A stretch of DNA of 64,000 nt from Myxococcota bacterium (GTDB lineage Bacteria; Myxococcota_A; SURF-8; G963663525). The stretch lies in the NCBI GenBank assembly GCA_963676915.2, contig CAXXVK010000060.1, positions 96,001 to 160,000 of the forward strand, written 5' to 3'. The position numbers and the translations under genes were made by a program. Below, piece by piece: positions 50,241-56,903 of the stretch. Position 1 is the first letter of the stretch. Every line of letters begins with the position of its first letter. The notes below the pieces were generated by a model. It was not told the origin of the DNA. It worked only from the letters and a program-made list of their open reading frames with translations, and ran no database searches.

Positions 50241-50697
50241 GCAATCCCCTCCCGCGTCGTTGATCTTGGATCGCAGCCGTTCAACGGCTTTGTGCGACAT
50301 CGACCCTTCCGGCGAGTTCGAACCTTTTCCCGGTCCGATCCGCAGCAGGTATCGTATGCATTTCACAAAGAGGTTGACGGTTGCTATCCGAAAACGAAGT
50401 ATAGCATACCAAACTGAAAATGGAAGACCTGCAACAGGGATTGCACGACAAGGGCGTGGATTTTATGGAGAAAACGGAATGACAAAGCTGATAAAAACGA
50501 ATTTCACACATGGTCGATAGTTTCTCTGGATTTCCACACAAACGCTCGCCATTCTCCTTGTGAAAAGAGAAGGTTCCATGGTAAGGTCTGCCGTCGAAAG
50601 TGTGTGAATGCAACAAACGGAAAGCGTTCCGGCGCGGCTCGAAAAACTTCGGGCAGACGGAGCGTTGTCCCGTTTCCAGGTCAAAGGAGTCGTATCG

Positions 50698-51903
50698 ATG
50701 AAACGGATTGTACCCGTGTTATTTCTGATACTTGCTCTCACGGTCCATGTGGCCTGCGAGAGCGGTGGCGAAGAATCGTCCACCGCAAAAACGGCAGAAT
50801 CCGGCAAGGCCGTCCTGCCGAAAGCCAAGGTTTCCAACAAGTTGGCGAAACTGAAAAACGCCAAAACCTCCAAGACGAAATCCGCCGCTCCGACCAAGGC
50901 GATGTCGACCAAAGAGATTGCCGCAAAATTCCCGGACGGAAAATACCCGGTGTTGTCCGTAAAGGACCAGGAGTTCGATTTCGGAACGGTGCAACAGGGT
51001 GAAGACGCCAAACACGTCTTCGTCTTGCGCAACAACGGCAAGGCGATGTTGAACATCGAAAAAGCCAAAGGATCTTGAGGCTGCACGGCCGCCATCGTTT
51101 CCGAGGCGGACGTTCCCCCGGGTGGGGAAGCCAAAGTGGAAGTCAAAGTCAGCACTCGTGGCCGCAAAGGCATGTTGAAAAAAAGCATTCGGGTGTATTC
51201 CAACGATCCGGCCAGCCCTGTGACCACCCTGACTATGAAAGGCACGGTGGAAATCGAGTTGGGATTGGATAAAACCTATCTGCGTTTACACGATCTCGAA
51301 ATAGGCAAAACTCAGGAAAACCGCATTCAAATCGTTGCAAAAAGCCTCAAAGGGCTTTCGTTTGGTGCGGTCGATAGCGGAAATCCCGATGTCGTGGCTT
51401 CGATCGTCTGGGACAAAGATGCGAAAGGTCAGCGAACGCCGTTTTTGGAAGTCAAGGTCACGCCTACGAAACTCGGAAGGCTCTCACGTACGGTGAAAGT
51501 CGCCACGAACCGTGAGAATCCCAAAGAACTCGTGCTGCGGATTTCGGGAGAGGTCAGCGGCGACCTGACGATACAGCCGAAAAGCATCACGTTTTACGGA
51601 AGAAACGACAACAAACCGCAAGAACGGTTCATCACGGTTTCTTCGAAGAAAAAATCCTTCAAAGTGGTTTCCGCAAAAGACACCAAAGGCGAATTGAAAA
51701 CCAAGGTTCAGGCGATCGAGAAAGACAAGCAATACAAAATCACCGTATCGCCCCCGGAGAACATCTCGAAGAATTTCAGCACCAAACTGACGGTCACCAC
51801 AAATCATCCCGACCAGCCGACGCTTGAAATTCCCATTCACGTGCGAATTCCGAAACCTCGTCCGCTTCCGAAAAAACCCGGAGTGGGACTCAAAAAGAAG
51901 TAA
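50698..51903 (+). CDS. DUF1573 / Ig-like domain lipoprotein, probable selenoprotein (in-frame UGA at 51076-51078)
   Basis: ORFs 50608-51078 and 51136-51903 are in the same frame. Read-through gives FDFGTV..H.F.LRNNG..L.I.KAKGS-U-GCTAA...VPPGGEAKVEV, matching the DUF1573 S-C-G-C-T motif. Lipobox HVAC; AAGGAG RBS. Confidence 0.85.
51089..51109 (+). promoter_or_regulatory. Candidate bacterial SECIS hairpin
   Basis: CCGCC-A-TCG-TTTC-CGA-GGCGG begins after a 10-nt spacer downstream of the UGA. Confidence 0.55.
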
Positions 51904-51920: not shown

Positions 51921-51956
51921 GAAAAGGGCGGACCCACCACGGTCCGCCTTTTTTTT
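51921..51956 (+). terminator. Intrinsic terminator
   Basis: AAAAGGGCGGACC-CACCAC-GGTCCGCCT followed by a T run. Confidence 0.85.
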
Positions 51957-52184: not shown

Positions 52185-53381
52185 TTATCCCACGATTTTC
52201 CGCAACGTGCGGCAAACGTGTTCTACCTGCTCTTCGGTCATTCCGGGATGATTCGGCAGGTAAAACACCTCGCCCAATGGTTGCCATTCGTCTTGGAAGT
52301 CGAAGAGGGTCATATAGTCTGAACGGCTGTCGATACCGTGTTTCATCAATTGCTGCTGCACGTTTCGTGCACATTGCACCCGAATCGGAAAGGAATTCCA
52401 GGTTCCTTCCGAACCTTCGATCTCTTGCGGTAGGATCACGTTTTTGAGGTCTGCCAGATCGCTCAGGTAACGGGAAGCAATGTCCCGCCGTCGCTGGTTG
52501 CGCCGGTCGAGGCGTTCCAGTTGTTTGCTCCCCAACGCGGCCTGGAGACGACTCAAAGGCTTGAGATCACTTGGTTTATAGGCTTCAACGGATTCTTCGA
52601 ACAGGTTGTCCAGACGTCTGCGGTCAAAGGCATTGAGCAGATAAAACGGTGCGAATGGCCCGAGCCGGTAGCCCCAATGTGTGGTCATGAACCAGTTCCG
52701 CAATCCCTGCCTGGCGCGCCGTCGAATATCCTTGTCCGAGGCCGGTTGGGCCGCAAGGGCGAGACGCATGGCATGGCGATAGATGTCCTCCCGGTCGGTC
52801 AGCACCATGCCTCCGCCAAAGGTCATCAGGTTCTTGCCGTGTACGAGGCTGAAGCAAGCGGCATCGCCCAGCGATCCCACAGGGTTGCCCTGATAGCTCG
52901 CTCCGATGGACTGAGAAGGGTCTTCGATCAACACCACACCATGCTTGTGAGCTATGGCTTTGATGGCGTTCATGTCGACGGCTTGTCCGAACGGATGTTC
53001 CACCAGAATCGCCGCCGTATCTGTCGTGATAAACGCTTCCAAGCGGGTAGGATCTAGAGCGAAGGTTCGAGGATCACAAGGTGCGTAAGCTGTTGTAAAA
53101 TCACAGGTTTTCACGACTTCCGGAATGGAATGAAAACTGTAGGCGGGAACGATGATCTCCCGGCCTTTCAGCCATCCCGGACAGGAAAGAATCGCATACA
53201 GCGCATGGCGTCCCGCGTTGAAAGCCACCGCATGGTTCCTATGATGATAGGCGGCGAAAGCGTCCTCGAAGGTGGCGGTCGCATCTTCGCCCATCGGTTC
53301 GCCCGCCAGACAATGACCAAGGATTTCCGCAACTTCCGCCATATCGAGGTTGATATTGTGCCGGGGCACGATCCGAAACAT
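52185..53381 (-). CDS. DegT/DnrJ/EryC1/StrS PLP-dependent aminotransferase
   Basis: FEDAFA, EHPFGQ, LIEDPSQSIG, FSLVHGKNLMTFGGG (PLP Lys), LPNHPGM. Confidence 0.9.
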   Translation of the reverse strand: MFRIVPRHNINLDMAEVAEILGHCLAGEPMGEDATATFEDAFAAYHHRNHAVAFNAGRHALYAILSCPGWLKGREIIVPAYSFHSIPEVVKTCDFTTAYAPCDPRTFALDPTRLEAFITTDTAAILVEHPFGQAVDMNAIKAIAHKHGVVLIEDPSQSIGASYQGNPVGSLGDAACFSLVHGKNLMTFGGGMVLTDREDIYRHAMRLALAAQPASDKDIRRRARQGLRNWFMTTHWGYRLGPFAPFYLLNAFDRRRLDNLFEESVEAYKPSDLKPLSRLQAALGSKQLERLDRRNQRRRDIASRYLSDLADLKNVILPQEIEGSEGTWNSFPIRVQCARNVQQQLMKHGIDSRSDYMTLFDFQDEWQPLGEVFYLPNHPGMTEEQVEHVCRTLRKIVG

Positions 53382-53390
53382 GCTTTTTCC

Positions 53391-54713
53391 TTATCGTTTG
53401 GTCCGTGGGGAGAATCCCGCCAGATCCATCCAGGTTTTCGCCATCATCGCGGGAGCCAGACCGGGTTCCACCGCGATTTCACCCAACAATTTGAACACCT
53501 GTCCGGGAGTCAGGTAAAATCGCCGATAGGCTCGTTGGGCCATCAGGGAGCGCAGATCGGAACGCTCCGCCGTGCCACGTTGCGAACAGGCAGCGCCCGG
53601 CCATGGTTCGTACACCGAATAATGCGCCAGATCCAAGCCCAGCTTTCGAGACATTCGTACGGTGTAGGTGTCGTCCGCTAGTGTAGCATCCGGCAGACCG
53701 AGCAGAAAATATCCGGTGACCGTCATTCTCGAACGATGGGCCGCCTCCACGAGACGCCGGATGAGGTCCGGTTCGTGTCGCCAAGCCGCGTCCACTGTAT
53801 CGTGGGGAACTCCCAGGGTTTCGATTCCCAACGCGATCCGTCGGCAACCGGACGCCGCCATGGAGGGAAACAAGCCGGGGTCCAATTCTCTGGGGCGTAC
53901 GCCGTTGACGAGTTCCCAAACGAGAGGCGGTGTTTCCTTCAGAAGTTCCTCGCACAACTCGGCCACTTTTTCGGGGCGAGCCGCAAAGGCGTCGTCTTCG
54001 AAATGAACGGCCTGTATACCGTAACGACTTGAAAGAACACGCATTTCATCGGCGACAGCCGCCGAGGAACGATAGGCGATGGTCTGGTTTCGGATGGCCG
54101 GAACGGGACAATGACAACAGGTGGAGAGACAACCCCGGCTGAAAAACGAGGCGGTGAAAGGAAGCGCTACGCTTCGATACGCCCAGCCATAACGCATGAG
54201 CGGAAGAAACTCACGATCCGGCGGGTCCAGGTGTTCCAGATCCGTTTCCAGGTGAATACCTCCCTCTTCGCGGATCAGGCCATCTTCCATCCAAACCACA
54301 CCATTGGGAGCATCCCTGCCTTGCAGAAAGTCGAGCGCTCGGACGACGACCCGTTCGGGATCGCCACGAATCACGAGATTCGCGCCCGTGGCGACGAGGG
54401 AATTTTCGGGTTCGAGCGTGGGAGTATCCCCGACGAGCACCACCGGCAGATCGGGACGCAATACCTTCAGTCTGCGGACCAAAGATGCGGTTTGATCGAG
54501 TTGAAAGTGGGTGACCGAAAGAATGGCCACCCGGATCGTTTCCTTTTGGGCGATGTGCAACACACGGGCGAAGAAATCGAAATCAAGGTCTGACCCGATC
54601 ACATGCCACCCGGCTTGCTTCAGCACGGATGAAAGGCAAGCCAATCCTAATGGAAACGCCGCCTCGTTGCGCCATCCCGGTTTGATCAGCAGTGCGGTTT
54701 GCCGTTCGTTCAC
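53391..54713 (-). CDS. Cobalamin-binding radical SAM protein
   Basis: FPLGLACLSSVL B12-binding N-domain; SRGCLSTCCHC (CxxxCxxC); HFEDDAF; LGIET; YFLLGLP. Confidence 0.88.
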   Translation of the reverse strand: MNERQTALLIKPGWRNEAAFPLGLACLSSVLKQAGWHVIGSDLDFDFFARVLHIAQKETIRVAILSVTHFQLDQTASLVRRLKVLRPDLPVVLVGDTPTLEPENSLVATGANLVIRGDPERVVVRALDFLQGRDAPNGVVWMEDGLIREEGGIHLETDLEHLDPPDREFLPLMRYGWAYRSVALPFTASFFSRGCLSTCCHCPVPAIRNQTIAYRSSAAVADEMRVLSSRYGIQAVHFEDDAFAARPEKVAELCEELLKETPPLVWELVNGVRPRELDPGLFPSMAASGCRRIALGIETLGVPHDTVDAAWRHEPDLIRRLVEAAHRSRMTVTGYFLLGLPDATLADDTYTVRMSRKLGLDLAHYSVYEPWPGAACSQRGTAERSDLRSLMAQRAYRRFYLTPGQVFKLLGEIAVEPGLAPAMMAKTWMDLAGFSPRTKR

Positions 54714-54761
54714 GTCCCCACCCAAAGAAGATTCGAAAATATCGTTACAGCGTCAGTTTGC

Positions 54762-54823
54762 GGTCGGGCAAATTTTTTGCCCGACATTGCCGAAGTGTCG
54801 GGCTAGAAATTAGCCCGACCTAC
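54762..54823. repeat. REP family A doublet
   Basis: GGTCGGGCAAATTTTTTGCCCGAC-ATTGCCGAAGT-GTCGGGCTAGAAATTAGCCCGACCTAC. Confidence 0.85.
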
Positions 54824-54887
54824 TATTTACTGTGCAACAGATTGAAAACACAACGTTTTTACCCTTTGTGCGTAACGTTGTGACAGC

Positions 54888-55430
54888 CTAGAATTCCCAA
54901 ACCAGTTTCAGAGCCAGATCCAAAAAAATCGGGGTATCGGGAAAGTCGGTGACAAGGTAATGGTACCTCGCCGAGCCGCCCAAAGCCCAGGTTTCGCCGA
55001 AAAAATAATGCAGATCGAAGCTGGTTCGAATGCCGAAATCCGTCCGCCACTGGTCCGTCAATCCCGAATGACTCAGGTACGGACCCAAAGCCAGCCCGAA
55101 CGAAGGCACGATGGGCAGACGATCGAACTCGTACTGTACGCCCAACGTCGAATCGATGAAGTGCACCTGCTTGTCATTTCGCACGCCGAACCCGGCATAT
55201 TGCAGATCGAGCCGAAGCTGCGCCTGGTTCCAGAAGCGCCAGGCTCCTCCACCGGTCAACGACAGCCCGCCGTAATCTCGTTCCTGCTGGCGCAGCCACG
55301 AAAAACCGGGACGAACGTCCAGTTGCCATTCGCTGTCCGGGTTCATGGCGTGGGCCGATGTCGGCACCCATAACAAGCCAAGGATGACCCAAACCAGCAG
55401 GAAAAGAATGGTTTTTTCGGTTTTCCACAT
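54888..55430 (-). CDS. Small outer-membrane beta-barrel protein (about 8 strands)
   Basis: Signal peptide ending AHA; alternating amphipathic strands; C-terminal WEF. Confidence 0.75.
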   Translation of the reverse strand: MWKTEKTILFLLVWVILGLLWVPTSAHAMNPDSEWQLDVRPGFSWLRQQERDYGGLSLTGGGAWRFWNQAQLRLDLQYAGFGVRNDKQVHFIDSTLGVQYEFDRLPIVPSFGLALGPYLSHSGLTDQWRTDFGIRTSFDLHYFFGETWALGGSARYHYLVTDFPDTPIFLDLALKLVWEF

Positions 55431-55533
55431 CGGATGCTTGCCCTTTCCCTTTCAACCTATGCTCTGCATGGAGAAGTTGCAAGCAACTTGTGGGTTTCGT
55501 GGCGAAAAGGATGGAATGAAAGTCCGCTTCGTT

Positions 55534-56661
55534 TTACGAATCCTTGTTTTCACCTGCCGCTTTGTTTTGCTGTTGTTTGCGGGCTTGTTCGCACATCAGG
55601 TAGGCGCAACGGTGGGGATCGGAACGGGTGTTTTCGTACAAATGCAGCGCTCCGCCGTGGCAGCGATCGAAGACTTTGCACGAGCTGCAGACGCCTTTTT
55701 TCATCCAGGAACGATCCCGCATGACCTGGTAGCGGTTTTCCCAGACGACCCTGAAACTTTCCTTTCGGATGTCGCCCTGGTCGAAACAATCGCTGATTTC
55801 CGGGCAGGCTCCGATTTTGCCGTTGTGCTTGATGCCACCCACCGTGATACCAGCCCGACACTGGCAGTGGTAGGGACGCACGAGAGTTTCAAACTCGCCG
55901 ACGTAACCTTCCTCGCAGTATTCGGGGATGGGTTTACGGCGATCTTGCCGGGCGGTTTTGATGTACTCCAGGAGGTAGCGCAGGTCTTCTTCGTCGAGCA
56001 ACAGATCTTCGCGCCTGGCGGCCCGACCGATGGGAATTACCGTAGCCAGCCGCCACAACGGAACTTTTAGCGAAGCCACGTAGCGACGCATATCGTCCAG
56101 AGAGGTCAGAGCCGGTTTGGTGACGGTCGAAAGAATCTCCAGTTTGCCTTTGTACCCGGCATTTTGCAGGTTTTTGACCGCCTGTTCCACCTTGGCCGAC
56201 ACCCCTTTGCCGCGCAGCCTATCGTTGATTTCGGGCAAAGCGTCCATCGAGAGCGAAATCGACCCCAGTTTGCTCGCCACGATCCGCCGGGCGGCCTCTT
56301 CGTCGAGCAACTGCCCGTTCGACACCATGCCGAACCGAAATCCCAACTCCCCCAGCAGGTCGAGCAGGTCGAATATCCCCTCTTTCAGCAGCGGTTCGCC
56401 GCCGGTGATGGCGATCATCACCTGTTTCGCAGGAAATTCCCGAGCGATTCGGCGAACGACATCCATCCACTCGTCGATGGTGAGTTCGTTTTTCCAGGCT
56501 TCGGGCGTGCAACTGCTGCCGCAATAGGCACAAGCCAGATTACAGCGGCGGGAGATTTCGAGAAACAGGTATTGTAGGGGATGGCGGTGGCATAAATCTT
56601 CCAGCCGCTTGGCCTGCTTTTTCCATTCGAGGTATTCCGAAAAACGCTCTGAAAGGGACAT
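55534..56661 (-). CDS. Radical SAM/SPASM protein, peptide-maturase type
   Basis: HPLQYLFLEISRRCNLACAYCGS, TGGEPLL, MVSNG; SPASM CRAG...GACP...CSSC....RCHGG...C. Confidence 0.9.
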   Translation of the reverse strand: MSLSERFSEYLEWKKQAKRLEDLCHRHPLQYLFLEISRRCNLACAYCGSSCTPEAWKNELTIDEWMDVVRRIAREFPAKQVMIAITGGEPLLKEGIFDLLDLLGELGFRFGMVSNGQLLDEEAARRIVASKLGSISLSMDALPEINDRLRGKGVSAKVEQAVKNLQNAGYKGKLEILSTVTKPALTSLDDMRRYVASLKVPLWRLATVIPIGRAARREDLLLDEEDLRYLLEYIKTARQDRRKPIPEYCEEGYVGEFETLVRPYHCQCRAGITVGGIKHNGKIGACPEISDCFDQGDIRKESFRVVWENRYQVMRDRSWMKKGVCSSCKVFDRCHGGALHLYENTRSDPHRCAYLMCEQARKQQQNKAAGENKDS

Positions 56662-56903
56662 GGTTTCACTCGTTCGTTTGAAGAATCGATGCACGCTACC
56701 ACATTTTTAGACGAAGGCCAACCGTCGGATTCTTCATGGAATGATCCGACTACATTGTAGAAGGTGAATGAAATAGGGGGAAAGCTGAGGTTTTTTACAA
56801 AACGACGATTCAAACCGTAGCCGGGCTAGAAATTTGATCGACTTTGTGACGGTTCACTGCTTGGATCAATCTCTTTTTAGTTTAAAGAAATCATAGTTGT
56901 CTA

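Follow-up and report, generated by a model that had tools for sequence, protein, structure and literature searches.

Selenoproteins of the OS_HP2 family, in which a DUF1573 domain carries selenocysteine (Sec, U) in a U-G-C (UxC) motif, were introduced as a new family from metagenomes of Olavius symbionts (PMC1976440, 2007). The Global Ocean Sampling (GOS) survey equated OS_HP2 with pfam07610 and the UxC motif and counted 2 Sec sequences and 354 Cys homologues (PMC2398784, 2008), and two reviews list DUF1573/PF07610 with a UxC/UGC motif (PMC9312934, 2022; PMC13188914, 2026). Neither the architecture of an OS_HP2 protein nor a drawing of its selenocysteine insertion sequence (SECIS) appears in the published passages and tables consulted, and the supplements may hold alignments or drawings; Fig. 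5 of the 2007 paper shows SECIS elements of other families (PMC1976440). The string 'myxococc' has 0 occurrences in the 2026 review (PMC13188914), and the passages returned by a full-text literature search for DUF1573 give no function outside the selenium papers. The gene considered here lies at 50698–51903 on the + strand of a 64,000-nucleotide stretch of a Myxococcota bacterium (the window; GenBank assembly GCA_963676915.2, contig CAXXVK010000060.1, positions 96,001 to 160,000, forward strand). With a probability of about 90 %, judged from sequence comparison, it is a genuine Sec-decoding gene of the OS_HP2/DUF1573 family.

The gene has the same domain as the described OS_HP2/DUF1573 selenoproteins, U-G-C (UxC) at the same column, and many Cys homologues, as they have. 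It differs in that the Myxococcota subfamily would consist of ~400-aa lipoproteins that combine a long disordered tether with three Ig-like domains. Cys-form DUF1573 proteins, which public records label as Desulfuromonadales, Ignavibacteria, Draconibacterium, Planctomycetota, Candidatus Binatia and others, have an S-C-G-C-T-A motif and a downstream P-P-G loop in common with it, and many of them are like it in their multi-Ig layout (~340–390 aa). However, they carry Cys for Sec, lack both of the RNA hairpins described below, and use varied synonymous codons over the peptide that the second hairpin encodes. Given that the family has been catalogued since 2007, the gene adds to a known kind and is no discovery of a family. 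The original prediction, which was made from the letters of the window, spoke of a hidden selenoprotein; the gene is indeed hidden in public records, where it stands as a fragment, whereas the family was already curated (NF041425) and in print. What is new is modest, namely the fragment-only public records and a two-part recoding signal.

In the mechanism proposed, the UGA at 51076–51078 would be recoded to Sec by the genome's own SelA, SelB, SelC and SelD, under the direction of a downstream two-hairpin RNA signal (51089–51109 and 51113–51129). The product would be exported and anchored to lipid at Cys20, and would consist of a disordered tether of ~60 residues and three Ig-like beta-sandwich domains.

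The in-frame TGA in Sec and Cys forms

A single + strand open reading frame (ORF) runs from ATG 50698 to TAA 51901–51903, with a TGA at 51076–51078 as its sole interruption. In the ORF list the two halves (50608/50698–51078 and 51136–51903) share one frame, and the TGA is the only stop between 50698 and the TAA, just as had been predicted. With the TGA translated as U, the product has 401 aa, and U127 stands in the context ...EKAKGS-U-GCTAAIVSEADVPPGGE.... With C in place of U, the product scores 107.6 bits against NCBIfam NF041425, the "OS_HP2 family (seleno)protein" (cut-off 100); a six-frame search of the genome with this model, in which the stop was not scored as Cys, gave 90.2 bits. The Pfam model DUF1573 (PF07610) matches aa 87–184 with 104.1 bits (cut-off 26.1; E 4.3e-30). 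The central elements of the gene are as follows:

50698–51903, + strand: full predicted selenoprotein coding sequence, 401 codons plus TAA with one in-frame TGA (translation, PF07610, NF041425)
51076–51078, + strand: TGA predicted to be read as selenocysteine (U127), at a column shared by 20/20 TGA-bearing copies and occupied by Cys in paralogues
51082–51084, + strand: Cys129, the partner of U127 in U-G-C, invariant in orthologue alignment A2

Two sets of genomes were compared. In the first, 41 related genomes including the window's own, exactly one TGA is present in 8/8 full-length matches (this gene and 7 orthologues of 36–66 % identity), and none in the 17 other, weaker matches among the matches listed. 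The second set comprises 401 genomes of the phylum searched with NF041425 (E <=1e-10). A match was found in 33 genomes; among the 36 matches listed, 20 contain one TGA and 16 contain none. The TGA falls in an identical column in 20/20 TGA-bearing copies (...[GS][ST]-U-GC[TSA]A...), and the stop-free copies have Cys there, with paralogues reading SS-C-GCTAA, TS-C-GCTAS, PA-C-SCT and AA-C-QCT. The prediction that the TGA takes the place of the first Cys of S-C-G-C-T is thus borne out by aligned Cys paralogues such as SS-C-GCTAA, and the proposed look at homologues found Cys and TGA alternating at exactly this column. SelA is present in 247 of the 401 genomes overall, in 18/20 genomes with the TGA form, and in 3/13 with Cys forms only. 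In one family (f19; 19 genomes, 15 of which have the gene), 6 genomes carry the TGA form and precisely these 6 are SelA-positive, while 0/9 Cys-only genomes have a SelA match. A single genus (g54) contains both the Sec and the Cys states.

The nearest named relatives are metagenome-assembled genomes labelled Myxococcota or Myxococcales. A related-locus search with the single protein found no relative. Using alignment A2 instead, 80 loci were obtained; as one of the two search patterns was back-translated from Cys, this sample favours Cys forms. A loose regular expression found the motif in 50/80 loci, of which 3 contain U and the other 47 only C. Over the compared stretch the 3 U loci duplicate loci already counted, and the set was excluded from the frequencies. 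The window's genome also has a distant second DUF1573-like domain on another contig (C33:75258–75578), without an internal stop, in a 294-aa open frame with 41 bits to NF041425.

The window's genome (a draft of 5.18 Mb in 74 contigs, 90.8 % complete) contains SelA (334 bits), SelD (359.5 bits), a SelB wing domain inside a 653-aa ORF, and a tRNA-Sec (62 bits against a gathering score of 47) with anticodon TCA (ARAGORN); the search for Sec machinery that had been suggested as a check therefore returned all four components. The same genome has a gene for an FdhA-type molybdopterin oxidoreductase with one TGA (contig C72, TGA at 229982; ...HCART-U-HAPT...). Its RNA forms a hairpin with stem GUCGCC/GGCGGC and loop GGUCU, 18 nt after the UGA, which as a positive control matched Rfam SECIS_3 with 44 bits (E 1.9e-9), below the gathering score of 63. 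The presence of an FdhA-type selenoprotein gene with a SECIS implies that the organism decodes UGA as Sec elsewhere too.

Selection was assessed over the 274 codons after the TGA by comparison with the orthologue of the same genus. The non-synonymous (dN) and synonymous (dS) substitution rates are 0.248 and 1.151 (dN/dS ~0.22), against dN/dS values of 0.372/0.454 and 0.458/0.174 for the two other frames of the same stretch. The frame 3' of the TGA is open for 274–298 codons in 8 aligned orthologues. To judge from these comparisons, the part downstream of the TGA is under in-frame purifying selection.

If the TGA had instead arisen by nonsense mutation or through an error in assembly or sequencing, the locus would be a pseudogene or an ordinary Cys-form DUF1573 gene. 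The draft state of the genome in 74 contigs would allow this, as would the coverage: a single identical contig (depth ~5), which may be the source assembly, spans the whole gene including the TGA, and contigs from two other sequencing runs cover parts of the gene 3' of the TGA only. Public records also split the gene, since the public protein collection holds it and its same-genus orthologue solely as 255-aa C-terminal fragments. However, the TGA stands at one column in 20/20 independently assembled genomes, the long downstream frame is kept open under purifying selection, and the hairpins are kept in the TGA forms only, so that an error or a pseudogene is very improbable. A contig of a second run from the same study has an extra A after 51852 (depth 18), near the 3' end of the gene, which might reflect strain variation, a frameshifted allele or faulty assembly.

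Several points weigh against a Sec-decoding gene. All the evidence for Sec is comparative, and the compared genomes are related, not independent; because of this kinship there are few independent events, and the correlation with SelA may reflect only a few evolutionary events. Moreover, 2/20 TGA-form genomes have no SelA match, and both keep the TGA form and both hairpins (G005, locus L019; G009, locus L022). In G009 (180 contigs, 94 % complete) SelB and SelD were found but no SelA, and the best tRNA-Sec match is a tRNA-Ser (ARAGORN). In G005 (3 contigs, 94 % complete) only SelD was found, with no SelA, SelB wing domain or tRNA-Sec. The G005 gene may be unreadable after a recent loss of the Sec pathway, and hence stranded, or the sel genes may be unassembled.

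UGA is a stop without SelB, and the persistence of the TGA form in G005, where SelA, SelB and tRNA-Sec were not found, would fit termination at this codon. A 126-aa lipoprotein fragment would then be made, and the 3' part would be a separate or untranslated ORF. Against this, the TGA falls within a single beta-sandwich domain (aa 86–185), so that termination at this codon, or reinitiation at GTG 51136, would leave half a domain. That GTG, 20 codons on, is the first candidate start 3' of the TGA, and no start with a ribosome-binding site lies just after the TGA; restart at the GTG would halve Ig domain 1 and yield a product without a signal peptide. Given also the in-frame dN/dS of ~0.22 for the 3' part and the way in which Sec forms track SelA, simple termination has very little probability. 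No terminator-like element comparable to that found after the TAA was seen after the TGA, by inspection of the sequence or by terminator scan. The signals at the two ends of the gene, taken as Sec-decoding, are:

50684–50689, + strand: Shine-Dalgarno-like AAGGAG, 8 nt ahead of the start codon, seen in the sequence
51927–51956, + strand: hairpin resembling an intrinsic terminator, plus a run of 8 T, beyond the TAA; this stem is reported by the scan on the minus strand

In the same-genus orthologue, AAAGGAG stands at the matching site and MKR... follows, which backs the start at 50698. The frame is open for a further 30 codons upstream, to ATG 50608 (50608–50697); this upstream start lacks a ribosome-binding site, and its use would bury the signal peptide.

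The RNA signal downstream of the TGA

Two stem-loops follow the TGA within the coding sequence:

51089–51109, + strand: hairpin 1, CCGCC-A-UCG-UUUC-CGA-GGCGG, 5 bp, a bulge and 3 bp (folding, covariation)
51113–51129, + strand: hairpin 2, UUCCCC-CGGGU-GGGGAA, with a G-rich loop that starts 40 nt after the UGA

Hairpin 1 is the structure named in the original prediction, and it is present where it had been placed: its loop UUUC (51098–51101) starts 19 nt after the UGA. As for its being the SECIS, a conserved RNA structure does follow the TGA, but hairpin 1 is only half of the signal and has no loop guanine. Folded alone it has an energy of -10.9 kcal/mol (z = -3.9), and 1/200 shuffles is as stable. 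Its conservation was examined in alignment A3, which covers 66 nt around the TGA in 19 Sec forms. The outer stem shows compensatory changes at synonymous sites of Ala codons: pair 21–39 occurs as C-G in 9 sequences and as G-C in 7, and pair 24–36 as C-G in 16 and as G-C in 2. The covariation score of 0.147 exceeds the shuffle mean of 0.048 (0/500 shuffles as high) and the slid-partner controls (<=0.097). The inner three pairs are not maintained from clade to clade.

Hairpin 2 is near-invariant (UUCCCC-CGGGY-GGGGAA), with 96.5 % of alignment cells paired, and its motif has one sense-strand occurrence in the 5.18-Mb genome. It encodes [V/L/I]-P-P-G-G-E. Among 18 distinct Sec forms the stem codons NTT, CCC, GGG and GAA are each found in 18/18, and the loop codon varies (GGT in 10, GGC in 6, GGG in 2). 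By comparison, the codons of 5 Cys forms with the same peptide are ATC/CTG/GTC, CCG/CCT, GGA/GGC/GGT and mostly GAG. The mean folding energies differ accordingly between Sec and Cys forms, at -14.2 against -5.4 kcal/mol for hairpin 1, the structure of which is lost in the Cys forms, and at -10.1 against -7.4 kcal/mol for hairpin 2. As the stems are conserved in Sec forms only, both hairpins are selected at the RNA level, and solely where the codon is TGA. In a Sec orthologue of one genome (G145, locus L133, ~1609–1668), P-P-E-G-E replaces P-P-G-G-E and hairpin 2 still forms, in a shifted register with loop CGGA; structure and G-G loop are kept there while the peptide changes.

For bacterial SECIS (bSECIS) elements, the consensus of the bSECISearch model sets four constraints, namely a loop of 3–9 nt with an upper stem of 4–16 bp and a minimum free energy (MFE) of <=-7.5 kcal/mol (PMC13188914, Fig. 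2 legend), together with one or more G among the first two nucleotides of the loop and 16–37 nt from the UGA to the apical loop (PMC13188914). Hairpin 1 (4-nt loop, 8 bp, -10.9 kcal/mol) and hairpin 2 (5-nt loop, 5–6 bp, -7.9 kcal/mol) both agree with the rules on loop, stem and energy. Other results weigh against the Sec reading. Hairpin 1 (UUUC) fails the loop-G rule and agrees with the spacing rule at 19 nt, hairpin 2 (CGGGU) fails the spacing rule at 40 nt and agrees with the loop-G rule, so that neither of them passes all four. Within 51040–51180 there is no match to an Rfam SECIS family, even at E <=10, and over the whole window Rfam gives 0 matches at gathering thresholds. Wider stretches of 71 nt (z = -0.10) and 60 nt (z = -1.11) are not unusually stable for their composition; with wider folding energies so unexceptional, the case for an RNA signal rests on the comparison between genomes. 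Finally, RNAalifold run on the 19 A3 sequences kept hairpin 2 and did not recover hairpin 1. This is because the inner-stem register differs between clades, and hairpin 1 was retained on explicit pair counts. The sole Rfam match at E <=10 on 51040–51180 is a Caulobacter small RNA on the minus strand, rejected as a chance match.

Downstream structures can stimulate stop-codon read-through in general. Since neither hairpin fits the full bSECIS consensus, the two could be such a stimulator, with a near-cognate or suppressor tRNA for Trp or Cys reading the UGA. However, the column is Cys in paralogues, the classic Sec/Cys pair, the TGA form goes with SelA in 6/6 genomes against 0/9 in one family, and the family is curated as a selenoprotein family, all of which makes suppression by another tRNA highly unlikely.

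Comparison with consensus bSECIS elements and with the genome's own FdhA SECIS points to how a Sec signal might be divided here. In all of them a stem-loop lies directly 3' of the UGA within coding sequence. Hairpin 1 has the canonical position, its loop lying 19 nt from the UGA (18 nt in the FdhA SECIS), and hairpin 2 has the canonical G-G-(U) loop, the FdhA loop being GGUCU. However, the FdhA SECIS has the canonical position and the G-G-U loop on one hairpin, whereas the OS_HP2 gene splits them over two. Hairpin 2, via its GG loop, would be the SelB-binding element, and hairpin 1 would be a folded spacer that shortens the effective distance. We infer that the chance of this division of labour, with hairpin 2 binding SelB and hairpin 1 serving as spacer, is a little short of even. 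A more tentative suggestion, on balance doubtful, is that the Myxococcota OS_HP2 signal represents a distinct two-hairpin class of bacterial SECIS, with a distal SelB-binding G-G loop outside the 16–37 nt range and a proximal hairpin kept as structure only.

The predicted product and its possible role

The 401-residue product would be divided as follows:

50698–50757, + strand: signal peptide (aa 1–19) and putative lipobox Cys20 (V-H-V-A-C) (translation, orthologue alignment)
50758–50955, + strand: low-complexity Lys/Ala/Ser/Thr-rich, predicted-disordered tether (predicted local distance difference test, pLDDT, <50 for residues 1–63)
50956–51249, + strand: DUF1573/OS_HP2 Ig-like domain 1 (aa 87–184) with the U-G-C motif (hidden Markov models, AlphaFold2 model)
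51259–51558, + strand: Ig-like beta-sandwich domain 2 (aa 188–287) (AlphaFold2 model, pLDDT ~90)
51565–51846, + strand: Ig-like beta-sandwich domain 3 (aa 290–383) (AlphaFold2 model; weak Pfam matches to Cep192_D6 and DUF7579)

In lipoproteins the signal peptide ends in a lipobox, [LVI][ASTVI][GAS]C. The lipobox of this copy, V-H-V-A-C, is off consensus in that His at -3 is atypical. The Cys that closes the hydrophobic N-terminus is kept in 8/8 aligned orthologues, in contexts such as LAVGC, SAFGC, SVAGC, LAAC, LASC and YVAC, and the product is probably exported and lipid-anchored at Cys20. The exported lipoprotein that had been proposed agrees in its length of 401 aa and in U127, and its lipoprotein character, with His at -3, is weaker than had been stated. 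The tether varies in length and is poorly conserved in alignment A2.

The AlphaFold2 model (mean pLDDT 80.7) consists of the disordered tether and three beta-sandwich domains, in agreement with the Ig-like fold foreseen from the sequence. U127 is modelled in a turn between strands 118–125 and 129–133, inside the beta-sandwich 86–185. Residues U127, G128 and C129 and the V-P-P-G-G-E loop are invariant in alignment A2. A second model, the Ig-like HYDIN/VesB PF22544, also matches the protein (E 1.4e-22). A sequence search of the PDB with the A2 profile gave 0 matches at E <=0.01, and in Foldseek searches of the PDB the best matches were tandem Ig proteins of the ciliary central apparatus (E 3e-17 to 1e-11). 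The beta-sandwich fold class is common to this protein and the HYDIN/ASH/PapD-like Ig domains (PF22544, PF15780). However, the latter belong to eukaryotic structural proteins, and the template modelling (TM) scores from Foldseek are low (0.2–0.27) because the domain type alone is shared; these HYDIN/ASH matches carry no functional information.

In the mature protein, C129 is the only Cys besides the putative lipid-anchor Cys20, U127 and C129 are the only free chalcogen residues, and the pair in the domain-1 turn would be its sole redox-capable residues. In C-x-C motifs such as C-G-C, an i, i+2 chalcogen pair with Gly between can close a strained, reactive disulfide or selenylsulfide. The present motif has the same residue spacing as C-G-C redox motifs on a different scaffold, and the likeness is a lead only. 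Most Sec residues of known role are redox-catalytic (PMC2398784), and published tables place the UxC/UGC motif beside UxxC-type motifs of redox selenoproteins. Because the motif is tabulated with redox selenoproteins and Sec roles are mostly redox-catalytic, a redox centre is favoured. By this analogy, it seems slightly more probable than otherwise that U127 makes the attack in a selenol/thiol redox centre, which would cycle through a U127–C129 selenylsulfide in the periplasm or at the cell surface.

The same pair might, in a genuine selenoprotein, instead be a soft-metal ligand that serves to bind, sense or traffic, for instance, Cu(I), Hg(II), Zn or Fe on the cell envelope. Predicted metal-handling selenoproteins (MerP-/MerT-like, cation ATPase) stand in the same published tables, the residues are spaced i, i+2 on an exposed turn of the model, and there is neither a thioredoxin fold nor a partner oxidoreductase gene nearby. 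However, UxC/UGC is tabulated beside redox UxxC-type motifs, known Sec roles are mostly redox-catalytic, and no metal-related neighbour genes were found, so that a metal ligand, argued from analogy, is unlikely, though a serious contender. A role other than redox centre or soft-metal ligand is improbable.

In its genomic context the gene stands by itself; the genes on either side, for an epimerase and a DegT-type aminotransferase, are both on the opposite strand. On the minus strand, 52185–56694 encodes a DegT/DnrJ-type aminotransferase, a B12-binding radical-SAM protein and a second radical-SAM protein, and an NAD-dependent epimerase and an acyltransferase are encoded upstream of the gene. 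These flanking genes resemble a cluster for the modification of sugars or lipids and seem to have no link with the selenoprotein gene. As a point against a functional reading from context, four flanking genes gave no tblastn match in 20 orthologue loci (flanks of 1.5–2.5 kb). When flank ORFs of 18 genomes were clustered all against all, nothing was widely shared apart from the two halves of the gene itself and overlapping shadow ORFs, with the short flanks limiting this test of neighbour conservation. An operon partner was considered and dropped, as there was no conserved neighbour in the flank comparisons.

Meaning for annotation and selenium biology

For annotation, the 255-aa fragments should be one 401-aa selenoprotein. 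If the two-hairpin signal is real, single-hairpin SECIS predictors would miss or mis-score such genes, and mis-scoring may partly explain the fragment-only public records; the signal offers a concrete and testable case of the bacterial SECIS elements that reviews describe as off-consensus. The locus does not reveal the role of DUF1573. For selenium biology, it adds a well-supported clade of exported, probably lipid-anchored Myxococcota selenoproteins, and within one family of genomes the Sec and Cys forms switch together with the presence and absence of SelA.

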